A stretch of 64,000 bases of DNA, taken from Verrucomicrobiota bacterium (lineage in GTDB: Bacteria > Verrucomicrobiota > Verrucomicrobiia > Opitutales > UBA953). Positions within the stretch are counted from its first letter, which is position 1. The number at the start of each line of letters is the position of its first letter. The stretch is taken from the NCBI GenBank assembly GCA_041180005.1, contig JBEGSF010000005.1:6158-70157 (forward strand). Direction: 5' to 3'. The translations under genes were made by a program, and so were the position numbers. The notes under the pieces are model-generated. The model was not told the origin of the DNA, ran no database searches, and worked only from the letters and a program-made list of their open reading frames with translations. Positions 13,314 through 41,864 of the stretch are shown one piece after another.

Positions 13314-14161
13314 GGCCCTTTTTCTTCCTTCTCTTCGGTGCCTCCATGGCGTTCGCCGCCGCGCCTAAGGTGCCGGAAGGCGTCGAGGTGCTGCGTGACC
13401 TTGAGTACGCCCAGGTGAAAGGCCTCAGCCTCAAGCTCGATCTCTATCGTCCGAGCGCCAAGCCTTCCGCGCCGATGCCTTTGGTCATCTGGGTGCACGG
13501 CGGCGGTTGGGGTAAAGGGACGAAGGCCGGGTGTCCGGTCGCCTGGCTCGCCGCGAAGGGCTACGCCGTCGCGAGCCTGGATTTCCGGCTCCTGCCTGAG
13601 CATCCTTGGCCAGCGCAGATCGAGGATCCGATCGCGGCCCTGCGTTGGTTGCGCCAGGAGTCCGGCAAATATGGCTTTGACGCCGAGCGTACCGCCGCGA
13701 TCGGGGGTTCGTCCGGCGGTCACGTGGTGGCTTTGTGGGGCACGCTGCCTTTGCCTCCCGGCGACAAGGTGAAAGCCGTCGTCGACTGGTATGGCCCGAC
13801 CGACCTCCTCACGATGCCGCCCAACGTGCTTTCGGAGAAGCGTGGTCGCGCCGAACTCGCCAAGGCGAACGGCGCCTTGCTGCTCGGCGGCATCGTCATG
13901 GACCAGCCCGAGAAGGCCAAGGCCGTCAGCGCCCTGCACCAGGTGACGAAGGACGACGTGCCGTTCCTGATCATGCACGGAACCAAAGACACTTCCGTGC
14001 CGGTCGATCAGAGCGAGCGTCTGCATGCGGCCCTCCAGCTCGCGGGCGTGGAGTCGACCTTGAAGCTCCTGCCGGGAGCCGGGCATGGCGGCAAGGAGTT
14101 CGATTCCGCCGAATCGCGGGCGCTCATCCAGGGATTCCTGGACAAGCACCTGAAGCGATAG
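13310..14161 (+). CDS. alpha/beta-hydrolase (esterase/lipase, HGGG type), secreted
   Basis: The GTG start overlaps the sulfatase stop (GTGA). Signal peptide. 'VHGGGWGKG' oxyanion motif and 'GGSSGG' nucleophile elbow. Confidence 0.8.
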   Translation: MRPFFFLLFGASMAFAAAPKVPEGVEVLRDLEYAQVKGLSLKLDLYRPSAKPSAPMPLVIWVHGGGWGKGTKAGCPVAWLAAKGYAVASLDFRLLPEHPWPAQIEDPIAALRWLRQESGKYGFDAERTAAIGGSSGGHVVALWGTLPLPPGDKVKAVVDWYGPTDLLTMPPNVLSEKRGRAELAKANGALLLGGIVMDQPEKAKAVSALHQVTKDDVPFLIMHGTKDTSVPVDQSERLHAALQLAGVESTLKLLPGAGHGGKEFDSAESRALIQGFLDKHLKR

Positions 14162-14168
14162 GGCGAGC

Positions 14169-15539: not shown

Positions 15540-15633
15540 CGATAGAATAACACCATCAGGGTGCCGGAGTTTCGTGCCCGTCATCCGTCGGGCTAAATGT
15601 TTACAACCTAAGGCGACCCAGTAAGGTCGGGAC

Positions 15634-16785
15634 ATGGATCACCCCCTCCGTACGCTGTTTTGCACGTTGGTCCTGTGGGCGTCGGGGGACGTCGCCGCCT
15701 TCGACCAGGCGCCCTTCGACGTCCCTCAGAATCGGGTGCTCCTGACGCTCGCGCCCGCTCCGGAGAATCCCCGTAACTCCGAGGGGGCTTTCGCGACGCT
15801 TGGCTCCGGGCGGATCATCTTCTGCTATTCCTCCTATTACGGAGGAAAGGGGGAGGATCATGGGCCGGCGCGCATCGCGCAGATCTATTCCGACGACCGT
15901 GGACTCACGTGGAGCGCCCCGCGCACGATCGTGGAGAACGAAGGCCGCTGTAACGTGATGAGCGTCTCGCTGCTGCGCGCCGCCAGCGGCAAGCTGCATA
16001 TGGTCTACCTGGTGAAGAACAGTTGGGTGGATTGCCGTCCGTATCTGCGGACCTCGGAGGACGACGGCGCGACCTGGTCCGCCCCGAGGCTCATCCTGCA
16101 GGCGCCGGGTTATTTCGTGGCCAACAACGATCGGCTCATCCAGACCTCCAAGGGCCGGCTGATCCTGCCGGTGGCATTCCATCGTTCCCGTGGACAGGAT
16201 CCGTTGAGCAGCCGTTCCTTCGACGCGCGGGCGATCGCCCTGTGGATCACCTCGGATGACGACGGGAAGACATGGCAAGAAGCCGCCAACTGGTGGGCGA
16301 TGCCGGTGCGATCAGGCAGCGGCCTCCAGGAGCCCGGAGTGGTCGAGCGGGCTGACGGCCTGCTTTTTTCCTGGGCGCGGACCGACGCGGGCTTTCAGTA
16401 CGGCTTCGCCTCCAAGGATGGCGGCAAGAGCTGGGAAGCCCCCGCTCCCACGACGCTCGCTTCGCCCGTTTCCCCCGCCAGCATCAAGCGTATCCCGGGT
16501 TCGGCCGAACTCCTGGCGATCTACAACGACCACTCGGGCCGCTTCGCGTTTACCAAGGGCCGGCGTAGTCCGCTCGTGGCCGCGATCTCGACTGACGGCG
16601 GGGCCACCTGGGGCCGGCACAAGCTCCTGGAGGGCGACCCGGATGGCTGGTATTGCTACACGGCTATCCACTTCGTCGGCGACGACGTGCTGCTTGCCTA
16701 CTGCGCCGGTGACAGCGCCAAGAAGACCTACCTCAACGTGATGCGCCTGCGGAAGACCTCGCTGGCCTGGCTGCGAAGCGAGTGA
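15634..16785 (+). CDS. BNR/Asp-box repeat exo-alpha-sialidase-like glycosidase
   Basis: Five Asp-boxes: SDDRGLTW, SEDDGATW, SDDDGKTW, SKDGGKSW, STDGGATW. Signal peptide present. Confidence 0.8.
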   Translation: MDHPLRTLFCTLVLWASGDVAAFDQAPFDVPQNRVLLTLAPAPENPRNSEGAFATLGSGRIIFCYSSYYGGKGEDHGPARIAQIYSDDRGLTWSAPRTIVENEGRCNVMSVSLLRAASGKLHMVYLVKNSWVDCRPYLRTSEDDGATWSAPRLILQAPGYFVANNDRLIQTSKGRLILPVAFHRSRGQDPLSSRSFDARAIALWITSDDDGKTWQEAANWWAMPVRSGSGLQEPGVVERADGLLFSWARTDAGFQYGFASKDGGKSWEAPAPTTLASPVSPASIKRIPGSAELLAIYNDHSGRFAFTKGRRSPLVAAISTDGGATWGRHKLLEGDPDGWYCYTAIHFVGDDVLLAYCAGDSAKKTYLNVMRLRKTSLAWLRSE

Positions 16786-18314: not shown

Positions 18315-19907
18315 ATGAGATTCGCCCCGATCTTGCTCTGCTGGACCGTCCTGTGCCTCGCCGCCGAGCCGGCCCGGAAACTCAAGGTCTTCATCCTCGT
18401 CGGGCAGTCCAACATGCAGGGGCAGGGCGTCGCGGACCTTGCGGGACGCAATTACAACGAGGGCAAGGGTACGTTGGTGGACGTGATGTCCAAGCCCGAG
18501 GCGGGCACGCGTTACGCTCACTTGAAGCAGCCGGATGGATCTTGGACAGTCCGGAATGATGTCTGGGTCCGTTATCAGCGAGAAGGGCAGCCCTTGCAGG
18601 CCGGTCCGCTCTCTCTCGGTTTCGGTGCCTACGTGAGCAAGCATCACTTTGGCCCCGAATATCAGTTCGGGCACGTCGTCGGCCAGGCCTACCGCGATCA
18701 GGTGCTGCTCATCAAGACCGCCTGGGGAGGCAAGAGTCTCTATCGCGATTTCCGTCCGCCGAGCGCTGGCGGTGAGGTCGGTCTTTATTACACGAAGATG
18801 GTCGCCGAGGTGCGTGAGGCGCTGGCCAACCTGAAGAAGGTTTTCCCGACATACGACGGCGCGGAGGTCGAGCTCGCCGGCTTCGTCTGGTATCAGGGTT
18901 GGAATGACGGCGTGAATCCGAAGACCGCCGTGCCGGAGTATGAGCAGAACCTCGCCCATCTGATCCGCGATGTCCGCAAGGAATTCGGCGCGCCGAAGCT
19001 GCCGGTCATCGTCGGTGAGCTCACCGGCCCATGGGTCGATGCGCCCAAGGAATGGACCGCTCTGCGTAAAGCTCAGGCGAACGTCGCGGAATACCCTGAG
19101 TTCAAGGACAACGTCGTGTTCGTCCCGACCCGTTCCTTCGTGCGTAAGCCCGAGGACTCGCCGAATCCCGGCCATGGCCATCATGAGTTCGGCAACGCCG
19201 AGACCTACTTCCTCGTCGGCGACGCCCTCGGCAAGGCCGCCGTGCAGATGGCCGGTCGCGATCGTCAGGTGCGCCAGGTCCGCGGCTGGACGCTACGGAT
19301 CGACGAACGCCTGATCGCCAAAGATGCTGCGGCCGTCGAGAAGGCGGTCGTCATCTTGGATGCGCAACTGGCGAAGGTGGAGCGGCTTATCCCGGCCAAG
19401 GCGGTCGAACGGCTCCGCTCGGTGCCCTTGAATTTCTCGCTTCCTTATCCCGACCGCCGACCCACCGCCGAATATCACGGCGGCCTGGCTTGGGTGAAGC
19501 AGGTCGGGCGGGAGATCGCCTTGGCCAAGGCAATCGAGTTCACGAATGTCGATCGCTTCGAGCCGGAGATCCGGCGCATGCCCGTGCTCGTCCTCCATGA
19601 GCTCGCCCATGCCTATCACGACCAGGTCATCCCCGGAGGCTATCAGAACAAGGATATCCTCGGGGCCTTCCAGCAGGCCAAGGCGGCCGGGACTTACGAT
19701 GCCGTCAAACGTTGGACCGGTGAGAAGTATGCGGAGAAGCCCAGCAAGGCCTACGCGATGACCAATCAGATGGAATATTTCGCCGAGGTCACCGAGGCCT
19801 ATTTCGACCGCAATGACATGGAGCCGTTCAATCGCGCCGAGCTGCAGGCCAAGGATCCCGGCGTCGTCCCGGTTCTCGCCAAACTCTGGGGCGTCGAGCC
19901 GAAATGA
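18315..19907 (+). CDS. fusion protein: sialate O-acetylesterase-like (SASA/DUF303) domain + C-terminal HExxH metallopeptidase-like domain
   Basis: N-terminal 'KVFILVGQSNMQGQG' and 'FVWYQGWND' (SASA type). C-terminal 'VLVLHELAHAYH' (HExxH at 19596-19610). Signal peptide present. Confidence 0.75.
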   Translation: MRFAPILLCWTVLCLAAEPARKLKVFILVGQSNMQGQGVADLAGRNYNEGKGTLVDVMSKPEAGTRYAHLKQPDGSWTVRNDVWVRYQREGQPLQAGPLSLGFGAYVSKHHFGPEYQFGHVVGQAYRDQVLLIKTAWGGKSLYRDFRPPSAGGEVGLYYTKMVAEVREALANLKKVFPTYDGAEVELAGFVWYQGWNDGVNPKTAVPEYEQNLAHLIRDVRKEFGAPKLPVIVGELTGPWVDAPKEWTALRKAQANVAEYPEFKDNVVFVPTRSFVRKPEDSPNPGHGHHEFGNAETYFLVGDALGKAAVQMAGRDRQVRQVRGWTLRIDERLIAKDAAAVEKAVVILDAQLAKVERLIPAKAVERLRSVPLNFSLPYPDRRPTAEYHGGLAWVKQVGREIALAKAIEFTNVDRFEPEIRRMPVLVLHELAHAYHDQVIPGGYQNKDILGAFQQAKAAGTYDAVKRWTGEKYAEKPSKAYAMTNQMEYFAEVTEAYFDRNDMEPFNRAELQAKDPGVVPVLAKLWGVEPK

Positions 19908-19959
19908 GCCCCGGCGGGATGCTCTTGCCCGGGGCCGCGCTCGGTGAGAGTAATATCCC

Positions 19960-20721
19960 ATGAGCTTCGCCACGCTTGCCCGCTTTCTCGCCATCTTCTG
20001 CCTGACGTTGGCGGCTTTCGGCGAGGACCCGCGCCGGGTCCTTTTCATCGGTAATAGCTATACCGGTGTCAATAAACTGCCCGAGGTCTTCTTGGAGGTC
20101 GTGAAGAGCTCCGGCGGGCCGGCGCCGGTGGTGAAGTCTTCGACGCCTGGTGGGCGCACCTTGAAGCAGCATCTTGGCATCGCCGGGAGCCTTGCGCTCA
20201 TCGACGAGGGCGGTTGGGATGTCGTGGTGCTTCAGGGCCAGAGCCAGGAGCCGGCCATCGCGGAGAAAGATGAGTCCGTACGGAAGGATTTTCTCGAGAG
20301 CGCCGCGGCGCTCTGCTCACGTGTTCGCGCGAAGAGTCCGCAGGCGCGGATTTTCTTCTACGAAACGTGGGCCCGGCATGCTGATTATTGGAAGGCGGCC
20401 AAGAAGGGGCCTGATGTCGGCGCCGACCCGAAGGAGATGCAGGCACGCCTGCGTAAGTGGTATGGCATCGCGGCCAAGGAAAATAGCGCGACCGTCGTGC
20501 CTTGCGGCGACGCATGGGAACTCAACTACGGCGCCCCGCAGCCTCTGCGTCTGCATACCAAGGATCATTCCCACCCGGAATTCGCCGGCACTTACCTCAA
20601 CGCCCTGATCTTCTTCGGGAAGATCTATGACCAGAAGACGCCGGCCCCGAAGTGGATGGGTAAGTTGGACGAGACCCAGGCCAAGCTCATGCAGGGCTTC
20701 GCCGCTCAGGTGCTGAAATAG
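19960..20721 (+). CDS. SGNH-like hydrolase (DUF4886-like), secreted
   Basis: Signal peptide. 'VLFIGNSYTGVN' (block I variant) and 'KDHSHPEFAGTYL' (block V-like). Confidence 0.65.
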   Translation: MSFATLARFLAIFCLTLAAFGEDPRRVLFIGNSYTGVNKLPEVFLEVVKSSGGPAPVVKSSTPGGRTLKQHLGIAGSLALIDEGGWDVVVLQGQSQEPAIAEKDESVRKDFLESAAALCSRVRAKSPQARIFFYETWARHADYWKAAKKGPDVGADPKEMQARLRKWYGIAAKENSATVVPCGDAWELNYGAPQPLRLHTKDHSHPEFAGTYLNALIFFGKIYDQKTPAPKWMGKLDETQAKLMQGFAAQVLK

Positions 20722-20725
20722 CCGA

Positions 20726-21838
20726 TCAAGGCGTCAGGCCCGCGGCGCGCAATGCCGTGGCGTGGACGTTGATGTCGTGGTCGGCCGACCAAGCGAACGG
20801 GGCGCCGTTGACGAGCACGCGGTGCAGGTCGCGGAATTCTTCGTCGTAGCGTCCTTTGGGGACATCCAGCGCGAAGGTGTTTTCACCCTTCTTGAAGCGG
20901 GGTTCGGCGAACATGATCATTTTATCGCCGACTTGTCGGCAGACCTTCGACGTGTCGCGAGGTTCGTCGAGCCGCAGGACGCCTTTGCCGGATTCGAGCG
21001 GGCGGATCTCCATGTCGCCCTTGGTGCCGCGGACGGAGATACAGCGATTAGGTCCGCCGAACGGGTCGGCATGGTTGCAGCGGATCGTCACGGTCGCCTT
21101 GGGGTAAGTGAGCACCGCGAGCTGGTTGTCGACGAAGGCATCCTGCGGGGCGCGGGTGGCGTTGCCGAAGGCTTGGACCGAGAGGGGCGGGCCCATCAGC
21201 GTCACGACCGTGTCCACGAGATGGCACGCGAGCTCATACATCCCGCCGCCGGGAATCTGGGCGAAACGCTTGCGTCCGGCTTCGTCGAGCAGCTTGCCCA
21301 TCGAGGCGTCGATTTCCATGACGTCCCCGAGCCAGCCTTCCTTGACCGCGCGGAACAGCAGCTGGATGCCGGGGTTGTAGCGTAGCATGTAGCCCATCTG
21401 GACGGTCAGGCCTTTTTCGGCGGCGTAGCGACGGAGCTCCACGAAGTCGGCGTGCTTTTCGGCGCCCGGTTTGTCCAGGTGGATGTGCTTGCCGGCTTTG
21501 AGCGCGGCGAAGGCCGCCCGCGCGGAGTCTTCGAGGGTCGTCTCGATGACGACCACGCGGATGGAAGGGTCGGCGAGGATCTCCGCTTCCGTCAGGTATT
21601 TCAGGCCGGCGAAGGATTTCGCCTTCTGCGCGCTCGCCTGGCGGGAGGCGATGGGCTCGGCGAAGCCGACGACGTCGTAAAGGTCGGGCAAGGAGCGAAG
21701 CGCGTCCATCTTGCCTGCGGCGTGGGCGTGCGAGGTGCCGATCTGGGCGACGCGGAGGCGTTCCTTGTTCTCGGCGGCGAGCAGGCCGGCGAACGGGGTC
21801 AAGGCGAGGCCAGTGAGGAGGGTGCGGCGGTGGATCAT
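20726..21838 (-). CDS. Gfo/Idh/MocA-family oxidoreductase with Tat-like signal
   Basis: 'MIHRRTLLTGLALTPFAGLLAA' and Rossmann 'RVAQIGTSHAHA'. The stop of the upstream gene overlaps by 4 nt. Confidence 0.8.
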   Translation of the reverse strand: MIHRRTLLTGLALTPFAGLLAAENKERLRVAQIGTSHAHAAGKMDALRSLPDLYDVVGFAEPIASRQASAQKAKSFAGLKYLTEAEILADPSIRVVVIETTLEDSARAAFAALKAGKHIHLDKPGAEKHADFVELRRYAAEKGLTVQMGYMLRYNPGIQLLFRAVKEGWLGDVMEIDASMGKLLDEAGRKRFAQIPGGGMYELACHLVDTVVTLMGPPLSVQAFGNATRAPQDAFVDNQLAVLTYPKATVTIRCNHADPFGGPNRCISVRGTKGDMEIRPLESGKGVLRLDEPRDTSKVCRQVGDKMIMFAEPRFKKGENTFALDVPKGRYDEEFRDLHRVLVNGAPFAWSADHDINVHATALRAAGLTP

Positions 21839-23931
21839 TTGAGGAGCCAGGTGGCGGCGGCGGTCTTCGCGTCGGTGCCGTCGACGTGCGGCGTGGCGGC
21901 AGGGAAGAGCGTGGCATTAGGTTCGCCGGCGACCCAGAGCGGCTGGGCGGAGGCGAGGCAGAGGAGGCCGGGGACATCGAGATACTTCGCGCCGCCGGGC
22001 AGGAACATCGGGTCGCGGTAATCGAGCAGCTGGCCGAAGCGGAAACCCTTCGTCTCGACGGCGGCCTTGGCGATGGCTCCGCCGGTCACGGCGCGGGCGG
22101 CGGCGGCGACCGGGCCCATCTGACCGAAGCCGGCCAGCGAGACCTTCTTCACGGCCGGCTGGGTGGCGTCGCGTTTCGAGAGCAGGTAGCTCGTGATGGT
22201 CATGACGTCGTGCACGCGCTGGGCGAAGAGCGCGTGGTTGTAGCCGAAGGTATAGGCCGGGACTTCGCGGGGACCGGCGACGACGCGGGTCTGCTTCAGC
22301 TTCTTGTCGTCCTGAAGGAAGAGATCGGCTGTGAGCACGCCGATGCCGCGGTCGATGAGTTCCTGCAGTTCGGGACGGATCGTGCCGTCGGGCAGGCGGG
22401 CGGATCCCTTGCCGGCGTCGTCGAGCCAGATCACCACCTCGCCGGTGGGATTGATCGGTTGCAGCCAATCGACCGTGACTTCTTCGCCGTAGGTCGAGTT
22501 GACCAGATGGCCCTGCGTGCGGAAGTGGGAGTCGCGCCATTGGGCGCTGGCGTCGGGGAACGAGATGGATCCCGCCTGGGCGTAGGACCGGCCGATGAGG
22601 GCTTCGACGGCCGGACGCAGGATCTGCTCACGACCTTCGGTGGTCTTCGCCGCGGCGAGCAGCTGCTGCTGGGCGTCGGCCTTCAGCCACTTGAGCAGGT
22701 TGCGTTCGAATTCCGGGTCGCCGGCCTTGGGCGCGGGGTGGGACTCATCCCACACGGTCAGCTTCTCCTTCGGCAGCGGCTGGTAGTCCCGTTCGATGAT
22801 CGGGGCTTCGAAGCCCAGTTTGAAGTGTTTGTTGAGCGCCGCGTAGAAGCCCGAACGGGTGACCGCGTTATAGTTGTGCGGGAAGTGTTCGCCGCGCTGG
22901 AGCGTCACGTAGTCCTTCTTGCCGTAGAGCTTGTACAGCGCCTGCAGGTCGGGGAAGCCCTTCGTCGCCATCTCCTTGGTCCAGTCGTTGGCGGTGTTCA
23001 TGCCTTGCGGCTTAGGCGCGAAGAGGGCCGCGATCTCGACGTTGCCGGAGTTCACGCGGAGCAGGGTGGCGTTCTCGCAGGTGCAGCCGCCTTGCATGGC
23101 CGTGCTCACCATCACCACGGGGTAGGACAGGGCGAGGCGAGGATCGGCCGCCGCCAGGAGCATCGTCTGGGTGCCGCCGCCGCTGGAGCCGGTAACGGCC
23201 AGGCGAGTCGGGTCGACCTCAGGCAGCGTCAACAGGAAGTCCACGCTGCGGATCGAGTTCAGGGTCTGGAGGCCCATCACGTTCTGGAGGTTGGCCTCGG
23301 CCTGCGGGCTGTAGAGTCCCCAGCCTTCGGTGCGGTTCATCTCGGCCCGCTGCTTCGCGAACTTATGGATGACCTCCGGCGAGAACTGCTTCGAGTCGGA
23401 GTCGCTGAGCGCGTCGATATGCCAGACCACGCAGCCCATGCGGGCGAGCTGGACGCACATCGATTGGAAGCGGGACTTGCCGCCCTGTTCGAAGCGCTCC
23501 TGGCCGGTCGCGATCTCCTCGCGGACGTATTTATCGGGTTGGATCAGGAAGCGCGCGTCGGTCCAGTGTCCGTGCGGGAAGATCACCGCCGGCACCTTGC
23601 CGGTGATATTCTTGGGGCGGTAGAGGTTGCCCGTGACGAAGAAGCCTGGCGCGCTTTCGAAATAGACCTTCTCGATCGTGTATTCGCCTTGGTCGATCTT
23701 CCCGTGGATGACCGCGTTGAGCGGCGTCTTGGTCGGCATCGGCCAGAGGCCTTGGGAGACCAGCAGCTGCCTGCGGACGAAATCACGGCGCGGCTCCCAT
23801 TCCTGGACGGACTTCGGGGCGGGGAAGGGGAAGTATCCGTTGAGGTCCTTGAGCGGGCCGAGGCGGGCGTCCTCCGCGTGGGCGAGGTTCAGCAGGCCTA
23901 AGGCCGCGAGGGCGAGCGTGGGGAGGCGCAT
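21835..23931 (-). CDS. secreted alpha/beta-hydrolase (acetyl-xylan-esterase / glucuronoyl-esterase-like)
   Basis: 698 aa, signal peptide, 'VTGSSGGGTQT' nucleophile elbow. The N-terminal region resembles PVC acetyl xylan esterase-like proteins. Confidence 0.7.
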   Translation of the reverse strand: MRLPTLALAALGLLNLAHAEDARLGPLKDLNGYFPFPAPKSVQEWEPRRDFVRRQLLVSQGLWPMPTKTPLNAVIHGKIDQGEYTIEKVYFESAPGFFVTGNLYRPKNITGKVPAVIFPHGHWTDARFLIQPDKYVREEIATGQERFEQGGKSRFQSMCVQLARMGCVVWHIDALSDSDSKQFSPEVIHKFAKQRAEMNRTEGWGLYSPQAEANLQNVMGLQTLNSIRSVDFLLTLPEVDPTRLAVTGSSGGGTQTMLLAAADPRLALSYPVVMVSTAMQGGCTCENATLLRVNSGNVEIAALFAPKPQGMNTANDWTKEMATKGFPDLQALYKLYGKKDYVTLQRGEHFPHNYNAVTRSGFYAALNKHFKLGFEAPIIERDYQPLPKEKLTVWDESHPAPKAGDPEFERNLLKWLKADAQQQLLAAAKTTEGREQILRPAVEALIGRSYAQAGSISFPDASAQWRDSHFRTQGHLVNSTYGEEVTVDWLQPINPTGEVVIWLDDAGKGSARLPDGTIRPELQELIDRGIGVLTADLFLQDDKKLKQTRVVAGPREVPAYTFGYNHALFAQRVHDVMTITSYLLSKRDATQPAVKKVSLAGFGQMGPVAAAARAVTGGAIAKAAVETKGFRFGQLLDYRDPMFLPGGAKYLDVPGLLCLASAQPLWVAGEPNATLFPAATPHVDGTDAKTAAATWLLK

Positions 23932-23959
23932 GAGGGCAATATGAGCCTCCTTTCCGACG

Positions 23960-23978
23960 ATGGGAAATAAAAAGGCCG
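23960..23978. repeat. left 19-bp direct repeat ATGGGAAATAAAAAGGCCG bounding the low-G+C islet
   Basis: An identical 19-mer occurs at 26858-26876. Confidence 0.9.
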
Positions 23979-24105
23979 GGCTAAGTCAGACCCCCTCAGG
24001 ACGCCTTTTTCCTCGGTAGGGTCGGGACCGCGTCACGACATAGCCGCCTTTGGAAGGGGTGATTGCCTTCGCTCAATCTCCCGCCCGGTATGCATCAGTA
24101 ATCCC

Positions 24106-24322
24106 ACTCAGTCAACGGGGTCAGTCAGCTGCTCGATCAGACAGCGACTAAATTCGATAACAACACGTGATTAAAGTCACACTCCCAAGAAGGGGGCGGC
24201 CTGACCCCGTGCTCGAGCTCAATGTTAATCACGGAGGCCTTTCGAACAGCAGGCTCACCTGTTGACTCTTGTAGCAGGTTAATCATAACACTCAGCCACC
24301 CCCTTGAATGAGCCTCGCCGGA
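24106..24322 (+). repeat. copy A of a ~217-bp conserved leader/promoter module preceding islet ORF1
   Basis: About 90% identical to 25796-26011. It ends 27 nt before the ATG at 24349. Confidence 0.9.
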
Positions 24323-24348
24323 CCAAGAACGGAATTGTCCCACAACCC

Positions 24349-25707
24349 ATGAGTGCTCAAGTAAAACGCCTCACTATTGCGCTTGGAGTACTCATTGTTC
24401 TCATGGCTGGAATCTATCGGTGGAGCATGGCAAGGCAGGACGCGAAGCCTCAAACTATCGCTTCACATAAGCCACAGACGTCAAAGGCTAAGGGGCAACT
24501 TTCACCATCATCAAAACCAGCGCTGCTTCGGTATGATCCGCTTAAGGATCCAGGGATGAGCGCCGAGGCGGCGGCCATTTATTATCAGCGCAGAGAGCAA
24601 ATGATTAGGGAACAGCACGGCGATGGGCAAATTGAAAAACCACTTAAGGTTCTTGAGGGCAGGACAGGAACAAAGTCAGATCTTATTACTGCAATTGGTA
24701 GTGTCACGCGTAACGGTTCGGTACGAGCTATACCATATCTTTTGAAGTTATTAGAGCATCAAGAATTACTCGTAAGATGGAGCGCAGCAGAAGGCTTATG
24801 TTCATTCGGCGACAAGCGGGGCTTTGACTACATTCTTCAACATTACGGACTCGTTACCGGCGCCGACTGGGCATCAGTGTTCAACGATGTTTTTGTCCAA
24901 TATAAACCTCCTGGATACAATGATGCGTTGATCAAACTAATTTCAGAAGTTAAACGTGAGGATGAGGAGTCGCGGAAGCTTGCCGCTCTGGAAATCTCCA
25001 CGGTGTTGGCTGAGATGGGTGAGCCTGCTTCTCTCGATGTGCTGCTTCCCAACCTTAAGCAATACCCTCCGTTGAGCGCTGCTAGGGTGCTAGCCTTGCG
25101 CAATGTCAACGATCCGAGGGTGACTCGATTTGCGATGGAGCTCATGCAAAGCGGCAAAAGCAGCGCCGTAAAGCAGGCTGCTGTAATCGTCTTGGCCGCA
25201 CGAGGCGATCAAGCGGCCCAGACAAGCATTGTCGAAGCGGCGAAGAGACTCATTGATCTGCCGCAACCGCAGAACGCCGATGGCACATACAAGCCAGGGA
25301 TGAATCCGGGATCCGTAGGCGCTGTAACTCCCGCATGGGACAGTGATGCCATGCTCGCGCTAGAGCGAGGCATGGAGTTCGTTCCCGCTGCTCAAGCAGT
25401 GCCGGCGCTCAAGCAGATTGCCATTAGTGCGAACAACGTGCGCTTTAGTAAAATTGCTATCATAAGGCTTGCGAAGATCGGTAACGAAGCGGCTCGTGAT
25501 GCCCTTTGGGAAACGGCCCAGGCTTTACAGAAGAGAAACCGTGTTTTTGAAAGCTCTATCTTCACGGCTGCAGGACAGGCGCTAACGTTGTTTGATGACG
25601 AAACTTCGATGAGTATGGCCACAATTCTTTTTGGCGGTTACCAGTACGGTTTCGAGGAGGCTAAACTTATTTCGGAGTCCAAAGGATGGGATGGTTTGTT
25701 CAAATGA
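24349..25707 (+). CDS. HEAT-repeat protein with N-terminal TM anchor (islet ORF1)
   Basis: 'RLTIALGVLIVLMAGIY' TM segment. Repeated 'xxVRxxAAxxLxxxGDxRG'-like HEAT/PBS-lyase-type units. The ATG at 24349 is preferred over the TTG at 24304, which lies inside the repeat. Confidence 0.7.
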   Translation: MSAQVKRLTIALGVLIVLMAGIYRWSMARQDAKPQTIASHKPQTSKAKGQLSPSSKPALLRYDPLKDPGMSAEAAAIYYQRREQMIREQHGDGQIEKPLKVLEGRTGTKSDLITAIGSVTRNGSVRAIPYLLKLLEHQELLVRWSAAEGLCSFGDKRGFDYILQHYGLVTGADWASVFNDVFVQYKPPGYNDALIKLISEVKREDEESRKLAALEISTVLAEMGEPASLDVLLPNLKQYPPLSAARVLALRNVNDPRVTRFAMELMQSGKSSAVKQAAVIVLAARGDQAAQTSIVEAAKRLIDLPQPQNADGTYKPGMNPGSVGAVTPAWDSDAMLALERGMEFVPAAQAVPALKQIAISANNVRFSKIAIIRLAKIGNEAARDALWETAQALQKRNRVFESSIFTAAGQALTLFDDETSMSMATILFGGYQYGFEEAKLISESKGWDGLFK

Positions 25708-25795
25708 AGGTGACCCTGGCCTGACCCCCTAAAGTTTGACAGTTCATGACTGGAGTTCCGCATGCACCTGAATCCCAAGGACAAAACCCGAGGAG

Positions 25796-26011
25796 ACTCA
25801 GCCAACGGGGTCAGTCCGCTGCTCGTTCAGACAGCTATCAAATTCGATAATAACACGCGATTTACGTCACACTCCCAAGAAGGGGGCGGCCTGACCCCAG
25901 GTTCGAGCTCGATGTTAATCACGTCGGCCTGTCGAACAGCAGGCTCACCTGTTGACTCTTGTAGCGGGTTAATCATAACACTCAGCCACCCCTCAAGTGA
26001 GCCTCGCCGGA
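25796..26011 (+). repeat. copy B of the ~217-bp conserved leader/promoter module preceding islet ORF2
   Basis: It aligns end to end with 24106-24322 (about 20 mismatches, 1 indel). It ends 26 nt before the ATG at 26037. Confidence 0.9.
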
Positions 26012-26036
26012 TCGAGGCCGGCTTCACCTCGTCACT

Positions 26037-26732
26037 ATGAAAACTTTATTCAAAGTAATCGTTTTAATATATGTTTACATGGGGACTGTAACGGCTGCAG
26101 AGCCCATACCTTCCCTGAATCAAACCCGTCAAATAGATCTTTTGACGGCAGATAGTGGATGGATTTTAAGGATAAGACCGGATGGCTCGGCTCATCTCCA
26201 GTTCGGTTCACTGATGGAGGATGGCGCTAGATGTCCTGCCGGAACCTTCGCTTTTAGTGATGTATATGCTTTCTTGGTTCCTAAAATTAAGGAAAATAAT
26301 TCTGCAGGCGATGTTGCCGTTGCCATAGTTCCTGAAACGGCGACTTCCGTAACGTGCCAATATATCAATGAATTCGAAGCTAAGCCATTCTTCTTAAAGG
26401 CGCAGCAAACATGCATGCCAATTTGGGACAAGGTTCGATTTGACGAGCTGGTGCATAAATACCCCATCGAGTCAGAGTTCAGCTTGAGTAAGCCTGCCGA
26501 ACCGGGCGCATTACAGCCTAAAGCCTTGTCGCAAGAAACGCCCACACCGAAGCCGCAGCCCGAGGTGCAGCCTACAAAGTCAACGAAAGCCACTGTTACT
26601 TCAGCGACAACTATCATAGCCAAGGATACCGCGACCGAAGCTCCTACCGCAATAACGCCATGGAACATCATCATTGTGCTTTTTCTGGCGTCACTTGGCC
26701 TGCTGTGGTGGATTCTCAAGCGGCGTCGATGA
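26037..26732 (+). CDS. hypothetical secreted protein with Thr/Pro-rich linker and C-terminal TM + RRR tail (islet ORF2)
   Basis: Signal peptide 'MKTLFKVIVLIYVYMGTVTA'. C-terminus 'PWNIIIVLFLASLGLLWWILKRRR'. Low G+C. Confidence 0.65.
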   Translation: MKTLFKVIVLIYVYMGTVTAAEPIPSLNQTRQIDLLTADSGWILRIRPDGSAHLQFGSLMEDGARCPAGTFAFSDVYAFLVPKIKENNSAGDVAVAIVPETATSVTCQYINEFEAKPFFLKAQQTCMPIWDKVRFDELVHKYPIESEFSLSKPAEPGALQPKALSQETPTPKPQPEVQPTKSTKATVTSATTIIAKDTATEAPTAITPWNIIIVLFLASLGLLWWILKRRR

Positions 26733-26857
26733 CTTGGGATAGTCCAGCTTTTTGATCCAGCTGAATACGACTCTCGAGTTTTGATTCGGTCACGATAGCT
26801 GGGCCCGGCTGGAGTGCGGCGGGTCGGGCGCCTGACCGCCAAGTTGGTTCTGGTAAA

Positions 26858-26876
26858 ATGGGAAATAAAAAGGCCG
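26858..26876. repeat. right 19-bp direct repeat ATGGGAAATAAAAAGGCCG
   Basis: Identical to 23960-23978. It overlaps the terminator at 26861-26892. Confidence 0.9.
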
Positions 26877-26892
26877 ACCTTGCGGCCGGCCT
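26861..26892 (-). terminator. rho-independent terminator of gene 26914..27675
   Basis: Minus-strand RNA: AGGCCGGCC-GCAA-GGUCGGCCU (9-bp stem with one G.U, GNRA loop) followed by UUUUAUUU. Confidence 0.8.
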
Positions 26893-26913
26893 TCGTTACG
26901 GATGTTTCCGTGC

Positions 26914-27675
26914 TTATTCGGGCTGCTTGCGGTCGCGACGATTGTCACCCTGCGAGCGGCGCGGTTCGCCGGCCTTGCGCATCTTCTCGAAGAGCGGCGC
27001 GATCGAAGGGTCGGCCTGGCGGGCGACGTCCTCGGCGATCTCGATCGCCTTGCGCTGGGCCGCGGCGGCGGCTTCGCGGGCTTCGCGCACGGCAGGGTTT
27101 TCGTTGGCCTTGGCCATGGCTTCGCGGACGCGACGCTGTTCGTCGGGAGAAAGTCCGGGGATCACGCCAGGACGGTCGGGACCGGGCTCACGGACGTCGC
27201 CGCGAGGGCGATCGCCGTTCGGCTGATTCGGGCCACGGTCGCGAACGGGCTGGTTGGGCTGGCCTTCAGGACGGCGCGGCTGCTCGCCGCGAGGCTGCAC
27301 CTGCGGCTGGCGGTCCGGCTGTTCAGGCTGACGGCGCTCCATGGCCTTCTTGATTTTTTCCAGGATCGGGGCGACTTCCGGGTCGGCCTTGCGGGCGGCT
27401 TCGTCGGTGAGCTCGCGGGCCTTCTTCTGGGCCTCCATGGCGGCCTGCTGGGCTTTGGCCGCCTGTTCGTGGGCTTCCTTCACCGCGGGGTCCTGTTTGG
27501 CCTTCTCCATGGCTTCATGCAGGCGCTTCTGTTCGTCGGGGCTGAGTTGGACAGGTAGGCGCGGGTTGGGGCGACCTTCCGGGCCGGGGCCGTCGGGGCG
27601 GAACTGAGGGCGGGGGGCTTCTTCGGCGGCGAAGCCGAGGCTGGCGGCGAGGAGGAGCAGGGGCAGGTGCTTCAT
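26914..27675 (-). CDS. secreted helical repeat protein with two 'LSPDEQxR' units (possibly CpxP/Spy-like LTxxQ family)
   Basis: Signal peptide. Internal duplication: 'LSPDEQKRLHEAMEKAKQDPAVKEAHEQAAKAQ' versus 'LSPDEQRRVREAMAKANENPAVREAREAAAAAQ'. Arg/Pro/Gln-rich spacers. Confidence 0.65.
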   Translation of the reverse strand: MKHLPLLLLAASLGFAAEEAPRPQFRPDGPGPEGRPNPRLPVQLSPDEQKRLHEAMEKAKQDPAVKEAHEQAAKAQQAAMEAQKKARELTDEAARKADPEVAPILEKIKKAMERRQPEQPDRQPQVQPRGEQPRRPEGQPNQPVRDRGPNQPNGDRPRGDVREPGPDRPGVIPGLSPDEQRRVREAMAKANENPAVREAREAAAAAQRKAIEIAEDVARQADPSIAPLFEKMRKAGEPRRSQGDNRRDRKQPE

Positions 27676-27772
27676 GGTATCGATATAACAGCGGGGCGGG
27701 GGAGGAGTTTCGTCTATCTTGGGCCGTCCTTAGGACTTGGCAACCTAACGGGCTTTGGGTTGTCCTATTCCC

Positions 27773-29251
27773 ATGCTACCCCGCCTCGCACTCCTCGTGC
27801 TTTGCTGCTCCGCGCTCGTTTCGGCCGGAGAGTTGAAGCTCATCTCCCTGTTCTCCGACCACGCCGTCCTCCAGGCCGGCGACGCTGCCGTCTTCGGCAA
27901 GGCCCATCCGGGCTCGAAGGTCAGCGTCAAGCTCGGCTCCGTCGAAGCGACCGCCACCGCCGGTGCCGACGGCAAGTGGCGTGCGACCCTCGCCGGCCTC
28001 AAGCCGACCGAACAGGGCAAGGACCTCGTCGTGAGCTCGGGCGAAGAGGTCTTCACCGCCCATGACGTCATCGTCGGCGAAGTCTGGATCGGTTCCGGTC
28101 AGTCGAACATGGATTGGGTCGTCAAGAACACCTCCGCCGCCGCGGACGCCAAGGCCCGCCCCGCCGACGCCGGCCTGCGCGTCTTCACCGTCGCCCGCAC
28201 GCCCAAGGCCGAGCCCGCTGATGACGTGCAGGGTTCCTGGAAGCTCGCCGCTCCCGATACCGTCGAGGGCCTCACCGCCACCGGACTTTTCTTCGCCCGC
28301 GAACTGCGCGCCAATATCAAGCAACCGGTCGGCGTGATCCACACTTCCATCGGCGGTACGCGCGCCGAGGCTTGGGGGCCGAAGGGCATGTATGCCGACG
28401 TTCCCGAGGCGAAGGACTTCGACGCCAAGGAAGCCGCGGGCATGAAGGCCCGCGCGGCTAATCTCGAGAAGATCCAGGCCCGCCTCAAGTCCGAGAAGGA
28501 CAAGGCCGTCGCCACGAAGCTGCGTCAGGACGCGGGCAAGCTCACGCCGGTCTGGTCCAACGGACCCCACATGAATTGGAACGGCATGGTCGCTCCGCTC
28601 GTCGGTTACTCCGTGCGTGGCACGATCTGGTATCAGGGCGAATCCAACGCCGGTCAGCCCGAAGCTTACAAGTGGGTCCTCGGTTCCATGATCAAGTCCT
28701 GGCACAAGGCCTGGGGTCAGGAATTCCCCTTCATCATCGTCCAGCTCCCTCGCTTCATGGCGCGCAAGCCTGAGCTTGCTCTCGAGGAAGGCTGGCCCGC
28801 CATCCGCGAATCCATGGAGTGGATCGCGGACAACGTCCCGGGCGCGATGATGTCCGTGAACATCGACCTCGGTGAGGAGAAGGACATCCATCCTAAGGAC
28901 AAGCTTCCCGTCGGCGAACGCTTGGCCTACGTGGCCCTGCAGCGCGTCTACAAGACCCGTGAGGTCGGCGAAGCTCCGCGCGTGAAGAAGGCCGATCGCC
29001 AGGGCGACGCCTTCGTGCTCACTTACGATCGTCCGGTGGTCCTCAAGAATGACGGCAAGGGCTTCGCCCTGCTCGGCGCCGACGGCAAGTGGGCCTTCGC
29101 CCAGGCCAAGGCCGAGGGCGCGATCGTGACCGTCACCGGCGTCAAGGCCCCCAAGGAAGTACGCTATGCCTGGGCTAACTTCCCTGAGGTGAGCATCTAT
29201 TCCGCCGGAGCCGACGGTCTGCCGGCCGGTCCTTACCGCAGCAGCAAGTAA
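27773..29251 (+). CDS. sialate O-acetylesterase (SASA family), secreted
   Basis: 'LFSDHAVLQ', 'GEVWIGSGQSNM' and 'GTIWYQGESN' are typical of 9-O-acetylesterase-like proteins. ATG at 27773. Confidence 0.85.
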   Translation: MLPRLALLVLCCSALVSAGELKLISLFSDHAVLQAGDAAVFGKAHPGSKVSVKLGSVEATATAGADGKWRATLAGLKPTEQGKDLVVSSGEEVFTAHDVIVGEVWIGSGQSNMDWVVKNTSAAADAKARPADAGLRVFTVARTPKAEPADDVQGSWKLAAPDTVEGLTATGLFFARELRANIKQPVGVIHTSIGGTRAEAWGPKGMYADVPEAKDFDAKEAAGMKARAANLEKIQARLKSEKDKAVATKLRQDAGKLTPVWSNGPHMNWNGMVAPLVGYSVRGTIWYQGESNAGQPEAYKWVLGSMIKSWHKAWGQEFPFIIVQLPRFMARKPELALEEGWPAIRESMEWIADNVPGAMMSVNIDLGEEKDIHPKDKLPVGERLAYVALQRVYKTREVGEAPRVKKADRQGDAFVLTYDRPVVLKNDGKGFALLGADGKWAFAQAKAEGAIVTVTGVKAPKEVRYAWANFPEVSIYSAGADGLPAGPYRSSK

Positions 29252-29280
29252 GCCTTCGCTTAAAGGCGCAAGGCCAGCAC

Positions 29281-29307
29281 GAGACCTCCGGAACTCCGGA
29301 GGTCTCT
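29281..29307 (+). terminator. intrinsic terminator-like hairpin after the esterase gene
   Basis: GAGACCTCCGG-AACT-CCGGAGGTCTC is a perfect 11-bp stem followed by TTAGTT (weak U-tract). Confidence 0.6.
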
Positions 29308-29344
29308 TAGTTGACGGCCATGAGGGATGGGCAAGGATGCCGGC

Positions 29345-30199
29345 ATGCGCTCCGTTTGGCTCCTCCTGCTGTGTCTCCTTTCGGTTTCCTCCGCCCGGGC
29401 GGTCGAGTCCGTCGCTCCGCCGGCCGGACTCAAGGTGCTCACCGCCGGCCACAGCTTCCATGTCTGGATGCCGCCGCTGGTCGCCGAGATGGCCAAGGCC
29501 GCGGGCATCCAAGGCCACGAGCAGCTGGCGATCTCCTCCATCGGCGGCTCGAAGGTCATCCAGCACTGGGACCTGCCCGCGACGAAGAACAAGGCCAAGT
29601 CGGTCCTCGAGTCGGGTAAGGCCGATCTCTTCACGATGTCGCCGACGTTCCTGCCGGATGCGGGCATCGAGAACTTCGTGAAGCTCGGGCTGGAGCATAA
29701 TCCCAAGATCCGTTTCACGCTGCAGCAGAACTGGGTGCCGTATGAGGATCCGGCCATCTGGCTGAGCCGCGAGCGTCCGAAGCAGGTCGACCGCGACGGC
29801 AAGACGCTTGCGCAGCTGCGAGCGATGCACGACGGCTACTTCAAGATGATCGAAGATCACGTACAGGAACTGAACACGCGCATCCCGGCCGCGAAGATCG
29901 CTATCGTGCCGAGCGGCGAAGCCGTGATCACGCTGCGCGATAAGGTCATCAAAGGCGAGGCGCCGGGCATCCGTTCGCAGAACGAACTCTTCACCGACGT
30001 GCTCGGCCATCCCGGCCCGCAGATCCGCGTGCTTTCGGCCTATTGTCACTTCGCCGTCATCTACCGCCGCTCGCCGGTGGGCCTGCCGGTGAACAGCCAG
30101 CTCGCGAAGCTTCCGGAGGCCGAGAAGCTCAACCGACTGCTGCAGGAGATCGCCTGGAAGGCAGTCACCGAGCACCCGTTGAGCGGCGTCGCGAAGTAA
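29345..30199 (+). CDS. hypothetical secreted protein (possible SGNH-like fold)
   Basis: Signal peptide 'MRSVWLLLLCLLSVSSARA'. 'KVLTAGHSFHVW' is at the position of an SGNH block I. No clear catalytic Ser. Confidence 0.55.
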   Translation: MRSVWLLLLCLLSVSSARAVESVAPPAGLKVLTAGHSFHVWMPPLVAEMAKAAGIQGHEQLAISSIGGSKVIQHWDLPATKNKAKSVLESGKADLFTMSPTFLPDAGIENFVKLGLEHNPKIRFTLQQNWVPYEDPAIWLSRERPKQVDRDGKTLAQLRAMHDGYFKMIEDHVQELNTRIPAAKIAIVPSGEAVITLRDKVIKGEAPGIRSQNELFTDVLGHPGPQIRVLSAYCHFAVIYRRSPVGLPVNSQLAKLPEAEKLNRLLQEIAWKAVTEHPLSGVAK

Positions 30200-30290
30200 G
30201 TGCCGATGTTGTCGTAAATTAATCAGAAAGGACCCTTTCTGGGCTGCGGTCTTGCCAGCCTTTCGTCGGCTCCGAACACTCGTGGTCAAG

Positions 30291-31013
30291 ATGCCACGCG
30301 CCGTCTGCCTCACGAACGTCGCCCACGAGGGGCCCGGGATGCTGGGAGATCTTTTGCGTGACGCCGGTTATCAGGTCGAAGTCATCGAGGCGTTCACCGG
30401 CGTGGCCTTGCCGTCTGATTTGGGCGGCGACGATGTTCTCGTCGTCATGGGCGGACCGATGGGTGTCGCCGATATCGGGAAGCCCGAGATGCCTTGGCTA
30501 GGTCCCGTGGTTGAGCTCTTGCGTCACCGGATCGCCAAGGACTGGCCGAATGTCGGCGTCTGCCTCGGCATGCAGCTCATGGCCCATGCCGCTGGCGCCA
30601 AGGTCGCACCGATGACCGATGCGAAGGGCGTACGGGTGCGTGAGGTCGGCTGGGGTCGCCTGGATTTCGTCGGCACCGACATCACCACCTGTGGGCTGCC
30701 CGCGAGCATCGAAGTCCTGCATTGGCATGGTGATGCCTGCGAGCTGCCGGTCGGGGCGATCCGCTTGGCTTCGACGCCCGCCTGTCCGGTGCAGATGTTC
30801 CGTCTTGGCTGTTCGTTCGGCATGCAGTTCCATCCGGAGATCGACGGCCCGACGGCGTGCCTATGGGCCGAGGAGGATGCCGATTTCGTGCGTGCGGCCA
30901 ATGGTGCCGACGGCGTGGCCCGTCTGCAGGCGGCTTCGCCCGCGGCGGCGCAGCGCACCGAGGCCCATCGTCGGAGGCTCCTCGCGCAGGCCTTGGCCGC
31001 AGTGACGGCTTGA
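30291..31013 (+). CDS. class-I glutamine amidotransferase (GATase1, GMP-synthase-like domain only)
   Basis: 'VCLGMQLMAHA' (nucleophile Cys) and 'FGMQFHPE' (His/Glu). ATG at 30291. Confidence 0.8.
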   Translation: MPRAVCLTNVAHEGPGMLGDLLRDAGYQVEVIEAFTGVALPSDLGGDDVLVVMGGPMGVADIGKPEMPWLGPVVELLRHRIAKDWPNVGVCLGMQLMAHAAGAKVAPMTDAKGVRVREVGWGRLDFVGTDITTCGLPASIEVLHWHGDACELPVGAIRLASTPACPVQMFRLGCSFGMQFHPEIDGPTACLWAEEDADFVRAANGADGVARLQAASPAAAQRTEAHRRRLLAQALAAVTA

Positions 31014-31049
31014 AGGCTGGCGATGGGGTGGTTGCATCGGCTCACCCCC

Positions 31050-31871
31050 ATGAAGCGTCTGTTGCTCCTTTCCTTACTGACCGTCGGTCTCGTCGCCGCC
31101 GAGCCGCCGAAGGGCGAACCGACGAACGCCAAGGAGGCCGCTGCCCAGGCCGCGGCGAAGAAAGCTGCGCAGGACAAGGTCGTCGACGAACGTTATGCGG
31201 CATGGGTGGCGAAGCTCTCGCCCGAGGAGCAGTCATGGGAGAAGGTGCTTCAAGGGCAGCTCGGCAATTTCTACCTCCCGCTGCATAAGCGCGACAAGAT
31301 CGCGGGGAAATCGAACGCCTGGGACTTCGTGAACGATGACCCCAAGCTGCCGCGCGTGCTGCTCATCGGAGACTCGGTCTCGCGTGGCTATACCCAGCCC
31401 ACCCGCAAGGTCCTGGAGGGCAAAGCCAACGTCCACCGCGCCCCGGCCAACTGCGGGCCCACCGCTTCGGGCCTGAAGAACCTCGAAGTCTGGCTGGGCG
31501 AAGGGAAGTGGGACGTCATCCATTTCAACTTCGGCATCCATGACCGCGGCACCCCGGCGGCCGACTACGTGAAGCGTCTCGAGGCCATCGTCGCCCGTCT
31601 CGAGAAGACCGGCGCCAAGCTCATCTGGGCCAGCACCACGCCGATCCCGGATAACCCGGCGCAGAAGCAGACCGCCCAGTCGATCGTCGAGAAGAACGCC
31701 CTCGCGGCCGAGGTCATGAAGAAGCACGGCATCCCGACGGACGACCTGTTCGCCGCCATGACGCCCCGGCTGAAGGAGTTTCAGCCTCCGCTCGACGTCC
31801 ACTTCACCGGCGCCGGCTACGATTTCCTCGGCGCCAAGGTCGGCGAGTCGGTCTTGGAACGTATCAAGTAA
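31050..31871 (+). CDS. SGNH/GDSL hydrolase, secreted
   Basis: Signal peptide 'MKRLLLLSLLTVGLVAA'. 'VLLIGDSVSRGY' (block I), 'HFNFGIHD' and 'DVHFTGAGY' (block V). Confidence 0.8.
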   Translation: MKRLLLLSLLTVGLVAAEPPKGEPTNAKEAAAQAAAKKAAQDKVVDERYAAWVAKLSPEEQSWEKVLQGQLGNFYLPLHKRDKIAGKSNAWDFVNDDPKLPRVLLIGDSVSRGYTQPTRKVLEGKANVHRAPANCGPTASGLKNLEVWLGEGKWDVIHFNFGIHDRGTPAADYVKRLEAIVARLEKTGAKLIWASTTPIPDNPAQKQTAQSIVEKNALAAEVMKKHGIPTDDLFAAMTPRLKEFQPPLDVHFTGAGYDFLGAKVGESVLERIK

Positions 31872-41787: not shown

Positions 41788-41864
41788 TGGTGGTAGTGGG
41801 CAGGATCGAACTGCCGACCTAGGGCTTATGAGTCCCTCGCTCTAACCAACTGAGCTACACTACC
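41788..41864 (-). tRNA. tRNA with CAT anticodon (elongator Met or lysidine-modified Ile2), CCA encoded
   Basis: Minus strand: GGTAGTG-TA-GCTC-AGTTGGTT-AGAGC-G-AGGGA-CTCATAA-GCCCT-AGGTC-GGCAG-TTCGATC-CTGCC-CACTACC-A-CCA. The cloverleaf is intact and the G1:C72 pair argues against an initiator. Confidence 0.88.

Follow-up and report, generated by a model that had tools for sequence, protein, structure and literature searches.

Why should two unrelated genes of a Verrucomicrobiota genome be preceded by almost the same stretch of DNA? The question is raised by a 64,000-nt segment of contig JBEGSF010000005.1 (the window, 64 kb, to whose numbering all coordinates given without a locus name refer), in which a first-pass annotation had pointed to a repeat of about 217 bp, ~90% identical between its two copies, ahead of two open reading frames (ORFs) that we call ORF1 and ORF2. 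The repeat itself was borne out, since 24106-24302 and 25796-25992 align without a gap at 91% identity (18 mismatches in 197 nt). With one indel allowed the well-conserved stretch reaches about 24322 and 26011, and a more diverged homology runs on to 24342 in copy A and to 26031 in copy B, so that the unit does not end about 26 nt before the start codons as had been proposed but comes within 6 nt of the ATG at 24349 and within 5 nt of that at 26037. The unit pair is the sole long repeat of the window, and a 29-nt core of it occurs exactly twice there against zero occurrences expected from shuffles. Because the 18 mismatches spread 7/7/4 over the three codon phases, the copies are not coding now. 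From 5' to 3' each unit consists of an element of ~100 nt, here termed X, a linker of ~20 nt and 108 nt that correspond to the right end of an insertion sequence (IS). We conclude, with a probability of roughly 80%, that the 217-bp unit is the fusion scar of two mobile elements and no purpose-built leader, namely a palindrome resembling repetitive extragenic palindromic (REP) elements that is joined to an IS3-family right end and fronts two foreign genes.

The 3' half was examined through its relatives in other genomes and metagenome contigs, whose loci are designated L001 to L026. An exact 20-mer from the unit was found at 12 loci, of which 11 belong to Opitutales/Verrucomicrobiota metagenome-assembled genomes (MAGs) and one to a short contig binned as Sphingomonadaceae; the matches often lie at contig ends, as is expected for a multi-copy repeat. 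In L001, L003, L007 and L015 the last ~110 nt of the unit come after an orfA/orfB pair in which orfB ends with ...RPHGSLGLMTPDEFAGKPVDRRAHLLTLVAG and a stop codon, and in L001, L003, L007, L009 and L010 they directly follow a reading frame ending with ...DYNRYRPHGSLGLMTPDEFAGKPVDRRAHLLTLVAG and a stop codon. The full IS is 1351 bp long, is present in freshwater Opitutales/Verrucomicrobiota genomes and is bounded by TGGG...CCCA inverted repeats; its left inverted repeat (IRL) is TGGGATAGTGCCG...TCAGGGGGTG, and the right one (IRR), taken as its reverse complement, is TGGGATAAAACCG...TCAGGGGGGTG, the former reading TGGGATA...TCAGGGGGTG and the complementary right repeat ending ...ATCCCA. The IS-derived 108 nt of the window are 24235-24342 in copy A and 25925-26031 in copy B, and they were recovered by nhmmer with the last 110 nt of the IS at E values of 2e-21 and 4e-17, respectively (about 87% and about 80% identity in global alignment to the IS right end). 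In tblastn with OrfB of L007, 11 of the 16 residues of the orfB tail are identical in copy A and 12 of 16 in copy B.

This assignment changes the meaning of two motifs in the unit. The TTGACT-N16-CATAAC pattern that had been proposed as a sigma70-like promoter is present at 24262-24289 and 25952-25979, its TTGACT being the codon string cTG TTG ACT of orfB. The mini-hairpin CCTG...CAGG is present as well, but it has only four solid pairs and sits inside the last transposase codons, within H-L-L-T-L-V-A-G; both motifs thus fall in the transposase codons L-L-T-L-V-A-G-stop. Relatives of the IS with 78% OrfB identity (L017 and L018) keep the right-end module in ordinary contexts, indicating that the module belongs to the IS and not to its landing site. 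The starts of the solo right ends in the window and in L005 differ by only a few nt and correspond to about position 1237 of the IS.

OrfB of L007 scores 208 bits against the NCBIfam model NF033516 'IS3 family transposase' (cutoff 160), and Pfam searches of the transposase ORFs identified rve, rve_3 and HTH_21 in orfB and HTH_Tnp_1 in orfA. The orfA gene encodes 88-107 aa and carries at its end, at IS position 342, an A8 run, GAAAAAAAAC, which is the predicted slippery site for a -1 frameshift. Judged by the curated model, the gene organisation (an HTH-type orfA and an orfB with the rve DDE domain, and the A-run at the end of orfA), the length and the TG...CA termini, all of which agree, the source of the 3' half is the IS3 family. 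It is probably an unnamed member, its best plasmid-borne relatives showing only about 37% OrfB identity. Unlike a standard IS3 element, the window retains only 108 nt of the IS, fused to a palindrome that is not of IS origin, and no target-site duplications were seen. The first-pass annotation had named the end of a known IS family as the outcome that would speak against its own proposal, and the 3' half is such an end. A more distant relative (69% OrfB identity) was observed at L019:1-8500, where three or four repeats stand in a row; in each, the truncated 3' part of an IS is followed by a C-terminal YD-shell (Rhs-type) fragment and by a small ORF. The array looks like a set of orphan toxin/immunity cassettes parted by IS fragments.

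The left ~130 nt of the unit, in contrast, have no match to the IS. The long-range complement noted in the first reading is real: GGGGTCAG at 24117 and 25807 pairs with CTGACCCC at 24201 and 25891, forming a conserved palindrome. X folds at -37.6 kcal/mol in copy A (z -4.2) and at -35 kcal/mol in copy B (z -3.2), and the two copies score 131.9 and 127.4 bits with the covariance model R1; over all X copies, fold energies lie between -35 and -62 kcal/mol and z between -2.7 and -8.6. By nhmmer, distant X copies without an adjoining IS end were found at L004:1361-1465 and L008:828-934, which have the arms ACGGGGTCAGGCCG...CGGCCTGACCCC in common and interiors that differ, with some compensatory changes. 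The distant copies form long hairpins with 16-22 bp stems and z of -6 to -8.6, whereas the window copies have degenerate arms with 8-13 bp of pairing and z of -3 to -4. R1 likewise finds X without an IS end in L004 (2 copies), L008 and L017 (3 copies), and one R1 match, L004:6912-6966, is a perfect 23-bp palindrome adjoining an assembly gap. The shorter related motifs that had been noticed upstream of both units, at 23985 and 25721, are present and correspond to half-sites of the REP core; the 64-kb window holds only two full X copies and two half-sites.

Two of the three X copies in L017 flank a Y1_Tnp gene (Pfam Y1_Tnp, 30.4 bits, cutoff 23), and JGI annotates homologs of its protein as 'REP element-mobilizing transposase RayT'. 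Every RayT-homolog locus that was fetched (L020-L026) has palindromes on both sides of the gene, built on (G)GGGTC[AT]GACCC or GGGTCAGGCTAC...GTAGCCTGACCC; with L017 included, a (G)GGGTC[AT]GACCC or GGGTCAGGC core flanks the Y1_Tnp/RayT genes on both sides. One RayT-bearing metagenome contig also holds a related copy of the IS. In REP systems, where REP elements or their paired form (REPIN) are associated with a RAYT gene, conserved arms in inverted orientation enclose a spacer that varies, the hairpins show compensatory changes, and the motif recurs next to the RAYT gene (PMC3116915, PMC3337134). X shares with them two inverted arms, a variable spacer, a hairpin of roughly 100 nt and an extragenic position (Bertels & Rainey 2011, PMC3116915), together with the compensatory changes between distant copies and a core that also flanks RayT-type genes in other contigs. 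Judged by its structure and by this RayT association in other metagenome contigs, X is REP/REPIN-like. It differs from those systems in the small number and degenerate arms of its window copies.

Other origins of X and of the unit were considered and rejected. When the left half and the DNA upstream of it were aligned locally to the whole IS on both strands, only noise resulted, which speaks against X being derived from the IS interior; nhmmer does extend the IS homology ~25 nt into the 3' arm of X (copy B and L006), an extension that rests on a GGCCT..GACCCC match and that we consider unproven. In L004 a truncated OrfA (HTH) of another IS3-type element (L004:1199-1357) stops exactly where X starts, meaning that X and IS fragments are nested at more than one locus. 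X is nevertheless not regarded as part of a second IS, as the ORF is not continued downstream, and we read the L004 arrangement as a nested insertion or junction. A Tn3-type miniature inverted-repeat transposable element (MITE) was suggested by arms that begin with GGGG, but the L004 and L008 copies have no flanking 5-bp duplications. A MITE derived from the IS itself is not supported either, since neither unit has an IRL-like sequence to its left or a target-site duplication. A minus-strand small gene (ORFs of 68 and 66 aa over both copies) is at odds with the 7/7/4 phase spread and with many replacements, and a diversity-generating retroelement, with its template and variable repeat, is at odds with mismatches that are not adenine-specific. 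An upstream ORF coupled to ORF1, which in copy A runs from ATG 24307 to a TGA overlapping the ORF1 start codon, has no conserved counterpart in copy B. Two sequence patterns searched for in viral contigs gave no match.

Both units lie in an islet of ~2.9 kb (23980-26857) with a GC content of 44-58% against 62-70% outside, whose order is REP debris, X and IS end, ORF1, X and IS end, ORF2, and an IS left-end remnant (Table 1). The islet interrupts the terminator region that separates the conserved genes 21835-23931 and 26914-27675 (minus strand), and it has on either side a copy of a 19-nt direct repeat, ATGGGAAATAAAAAGGCCG, with exact matches only at 23960 and 26858. The start of ORF1 is agreed on by the gene callers, and its product matches Pfam HEAT_2 with an E value of 1.4e-16. 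ORF2 has no match in Pfam or NCBIfam, and its C-terminus resembles that of the ORF at L004:503-1156, which is likewise preceded by an IS right end. ORF2 is enclosed by an IS right end upstream and the left-end remnant downstream; the remnant reads TGGGATAGTCCAGC... and is recognised in the window by nhmmer with an E value of 0.055; at the same position L014 keeps ~95 nt of the left end (E 3e-19). By analogy, this setting is as in a decayed composite transposon. The gaps are short throughout: 6 nt from the IS tip to the ATG of ORF1, 5 nt to that of ORF2, and 2 nt from the ORF2 stop to the IRL remnant.

Table 1. Positions in the window of the islet features and their repeats.
Feature	Position	Strand	Remarks
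19-nt direct repeat ATGGGAAATAAAAAGGCCG, left copy	23960-23978		brackets islet
REP-core half-site GTCAGACCCC	23985-23994	+	upstream of copy A; same core GGGGTCAGACCCC flanks RayT genes in L017
Edge of second REP-like family, GTCGTGACGCGGTCCCGACCCTACCGAGG	24012-24041	-	GC-rich hairpin, then CCCTACC(K)RAGG; left inner islet edge
Element X, copy A	24113-24212	+	arms GGGGTCAG (24117-24124) and CTGACCCC (24201-24208); inner hairpins
orfB tail relic, copy A	24235-24282	+	last 16 codons RPFEQQAHLLTLVAG, stop TAA 24280-24282; holds TTGACT and mini-hairpin
IRR, copy A	24297-24342	+	ends ...GTCCCA, 6 nt before ORF1 ATG
ORF1	24349-25707	+	452 aa; N-terminal membrane anchor and HEAT repeats; low-GC cargo
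REP-core half-site CTGACCCC	25721-25728	+	upstream of copy B
Element X, copy B	25803-25902	+	REP/REPIN-like palindrome
IS right-end remnant, copy B	25925-26031	+	orfB tail RPVEQQAHLLTLVAG, stop 25970-25972, degenerate IRR; ends 5 nt before ORF2 ATG
ORF2	26037-26732	+	231 aa; signal peptide and C-terminal anchor ...GLLWWILKRRR; low-GC cargo
IRL remnant TGGGATAGTCCAGCTTTTTGATCCAGCTGAATACGAC...	26735-26778	+	begins 2 nt past ORF2 stop
19-nt direct repeat ATGGGAAATAAAAAGGCCG, right copy	26858-26876		within terminator tail of minus-strand gene 26914-27675

The dynamics of the islet were assessed by comparison with related strains. Window 20735-31853 is collinear with JBJOMV010000002, a contig of another Verrucomicrobiota MAG, at 96.4% identity. 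Against these orthologs, X and the IS end are 85.5% and 93.3% identical in copy A and 90.6% and 85.7% identical in copy B, lower than ORF1 at 97.9% and ORF2 at 99.3% (third-position divergence 3.5% and 0.9%, respectively). The two flanking genes diverge by 10-15% at third positions. The conservation of the units therefore does not exceed that of neutral sites. In addition, the unit copies are mosaics between strains: in a metagenome copy B, the X part is 97% identical to window copy A versus 89% to window copy B, whereas the IS part is 95% identical to window copy B versus 88% to copy A, indicative of gene conversion between the copies. As a separate observation, the last ~23 nt of IS end B (26010-26031) show about 9 differences from L012, the JBJOMV copy B (GGATCGAGGCCGGCTTCACCTCG versus GGGCCAAAAACGGTTTCATCTCA), a local clustering of changes at the IS tip, with ORF2 just downstream nearly unchanged.

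The metagenome contigs L014-L016, which are orthologous to the islet at strain level, carry a full IS upstream of ORF1, with a junction, ...GGAATTGTCCCA/CAACCC/ATG, identical to that of the window; in L015 the full IS reads ...GTCCCA/CAACCC/ATG before ORF1. L013 matches the window linker for ~18 nt past the IS-derived part, after which the contig ends, and together with L014-L016 this shows that both states exist in those samples. In L014 a different, oppositely oriented ORF of 148 aa replaces IS end B and ORF2. L011 has a hybrid unit, with A-type X and a B-type tip, directly before ORF2, and L001 consists of IS, 1.8 kb of low-GC cargo and IS. Strains thus differ by full versus partial IS and by whole ORFs at the unit boundaries. 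Exact-protein look-ups with a flanking gene and with ORF2 returned the same arrangement or a contig broken at the islet edge, and no islet-free site was among them. Intact forms of both ORF1 and ORF2 are present in the window, the JBJOMV ortholog, L015 and L016, and of ORF1 in L014 too, while L011 holds the start of ORF2; the two ORFs are therefore probably expressed. The differences in ORF1 between strains fall 6/6/16 over the codon positions.

With only 5-6 nt between IS tip and ATG, any transcript of ORF1 and ORF2 must begin within the IS-derived 108 nt or run across them. There is no room for another promoter between the unit and the ATGs, which makes a promoter role of the unit plausible, and the IS end probably supplies the promoter for both ORFs. 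Transcription would arise either from an outward-facing promoter, for which TTGACT-16-CATAAC is a candidate, or by read-through. One report (PMC12095673) describes IS3 ends as often carrying, or easily evolving, promoters or proto-promoters. The units would also provide portable homology for recombination by which ORFs could be added, removed or swapped between strains, and gene conversion would keep the two units similar. REP elements elsewhere in bacteria mark or stabilise transcript 3' ends. By analogy, the X hairpin downstream of ORF1 may act as a transcript 3'-end, stabiliser or insulator element.

Several observations weigh against the fusion-scar reading as a complete account. The flanks of the full IS copies in L001, L003 and L007 have no matching 3-4 bp, a lack of target-site duplication that is compatible with composite structures or with recombination between copies. 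The bracketing of the islet by a 19-nt direct repeat is not a product of IS3 insertion, and no RayT (Y1) gene lies in the 64-kb window. Randomly inserted IS copies would not be expected to lie as close to ORFs as the 2-6 nt seen here, neither X nor the IS accounts for the linker of ~20 nt (about 24213-24234), and the identical X/IS junction in both copies requires one founding event followed by duplication or conversion. As for the promoter, the CATAAC -10 hexamer lacks the conserved final T (T6), and a consensus promoter scan did not call TTGACT-16-CATAAC.

Some of these points feed a different and, in our estimation, unlikely explanation, namely an integrase-free cassette system in which the 110-nt IS right-end module and the palindromes are kept as adapters, offering a promoter and portable homology, so that a pool of low-GC genes for secreted or anchored proteins would be shuffled between small islets of freshwater Opitutales. 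It would fit with nine of 11 right ends of this IS lineage being followed by 1-2 kb of DNA with 46-52% GC and a same-strand ORF 5-340 nt away, with cargo ORFs of L001, L005 and L010 that are homologous at 41-51% identity while the IS ends are far more similar, and with the C-terminal anchor that ORF2 and the L004 cargo ORF have in common. The shared start of the solo right ends, the position of X beyond the cargo at three loci (window, L004 and L008) and the gain, loss or swap of whole cassettes between strains point the same way, and the tight ORF-to-tip gaps, the linker and the identical junction keep the idea alive at low probability. Set against it, the loci were selected by a 20-mer from the unit and form a small and biased sample, the IS relatives at 78% identity keep the module although their contexts are ordinary, the units evolve no slower than neutral sites, and ordinary IS-mediated rearrangement in flexible islands fits all the observations.

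A dedicated cis-regulatory leader, as favoured by the first-pass annotation, would be a transcript that controls the ORFs by folding into the GGGGTCAG/CTGACCCC stem and the hairpin downstream of it. The placement of a unit directly upstream of both ORFs, the folding of X beyond that of shuffles (z -3 to -4) and double changes at 4 of 23 consensus pairs are in its favour, but the candidate promoter lies downstream of the X stem, which leaves X outside a transcript starting there. Moreover, X and the IS end are found separately at other loci, the 3' half is made up of transposase codons and an IS inverted repeat, and whole-unit folds are weak or inconsistent, with z of -1.4 and -3.1 and different structures. 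The unit is also more diverged between orthologs than the adjoining ORFs. The proposed check against Rfam was run: at gathering thresholds the whole window yielded only RNase P RNA and a tRNA, both outside the units, and over 23900-26950 the units remained without any match at E values up to 10. A regulatory RNA of this kind is therefore highly improbable, the two halves being instead an IS3-family right end and a REP/REPIN-like element; what stands of the earlier proposal is the portable, cassette-like array and the plausible promoter role. We likewise give very little credence to the opposite possibility, that the units are inert debris without a role in expression, with ORFs that are silent or read through and a repeat that is young or homogenised. 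The neutral-like divergence of the units, the weak -10 hexamer and the absence of a visible Shine-Dalgarno sequence between IS tip and ATGs would agree with it, but the strain differences in ORF1 are enriched at third positions with the HEAT repeats kept, both ORFs are intact across strains, and the only upstream DNA available for their expression is IS-derived.

The fusion of a REP-like palindrome with an IS3 end also shares features with better-known gene-capture systems. As in composite or pseudo-compound transposons and IS26 arrays, cargo lies between directly repeated IS sequences (IS, cargo and IS in L001; IRR, ORF2 and IRL in the window), and whole units are gained or lost between strains, consistent with recombination at repeats. 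It differs from them in that the IS copies are mostly short remnants, the family is IS3 and not IS6, and there is no sign of transposase-made translocatable units. The islet resembles integron cassettes in having promoterless-looking, unrelated ORFs on the same strand, parted by an imperfect palindrome and foreign to the host in composition. In contrast to integrons, however, no integrase was found among the neighbours within the ~6 kb examined on either side (esterases, oxidoreductase, GATase), attC core sites (RYYYAAC...GTTRRRY) are absent on inspection, and the conserved sequence near the ORF starts is an IS end.

Further observations were made on the islet proteins and their surroundings. 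Several islet proteins finish with a hydrophobic stretch and a basic tail (...GLLWW[IL]LKRR[RK] or ...LLLRKRG), among them ORF2, L004:503-1156, the end of an ORF that precedes the IS end of L005, and L001:4582-4938 (minus strand); the common tail looks like a C-terminal sorting or anchor signal. The homologous cargo ORFs are L001:3243-4232, an ORF of L005 (323 aa, ~52 nt past the IS end) and one of L010 (338 aa, minus strand), all with a weak CarboxypepD_reg-like N-terminus; L001 and L010 are from the same MAG and L005 from another. The second REP-like family, whose edge marks the left inner border of the islet, recurs as a 21-mer at L004:6779-6799 by an assembly gap (motif region L004:6740-6800) and in L006, and the same motif type was seen at L002:4083-4201, at the far edge of a low-GC cargo, and in L020 at about 1540-1680, downstream of the RayT gene. 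The minus-strand gene 26914-27675 (253 aa) contains a 94-nt internal direct repeat, 27054-27147 and 27447-27540, with 72% identity, corresponding to two similar protein halves. Farther away, 13314-15696 and 19892-20734, the latter holding a DUF4886/GDSL-like gene (19960-20721), are absent from the otherwise collinear JBJOMV010000002 (93-96% identical) and represent strain-specific indels. The RNase P RNA (class A, 56145-56516, minus strand, 213.8 bits) and the tRNA gene (41791-41864, minus strand) are ordinary housekeeping RNAs.

The finding is one of ordinary mobile-element remnants in a flexible islet. It illustrates that a conserved 'leader' of unrelated genes can be an IS terminus plus a REP-like element, and that a useful check is whether the same sequence stands behind the transposase in relatives. 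It also adds to the record of Verrucomicrobiota an IS3-family element, probably unnamed so far, and a REP/RayT family of the GGGGTCAG type. If the adapter explanation were true, it would account for the low-GC genes after the right ends, the 2-6 nt gaps between ORFs and IS tips and the whole-cassette differences between strains. The locus offers a small example of the way in which foreign low-GC genes, belonging to the flexible genome in uncultured Verrucomicrobiota of fresh water, are arranged by IS remnants and REP-like palindromes, which probably also drive their expression.

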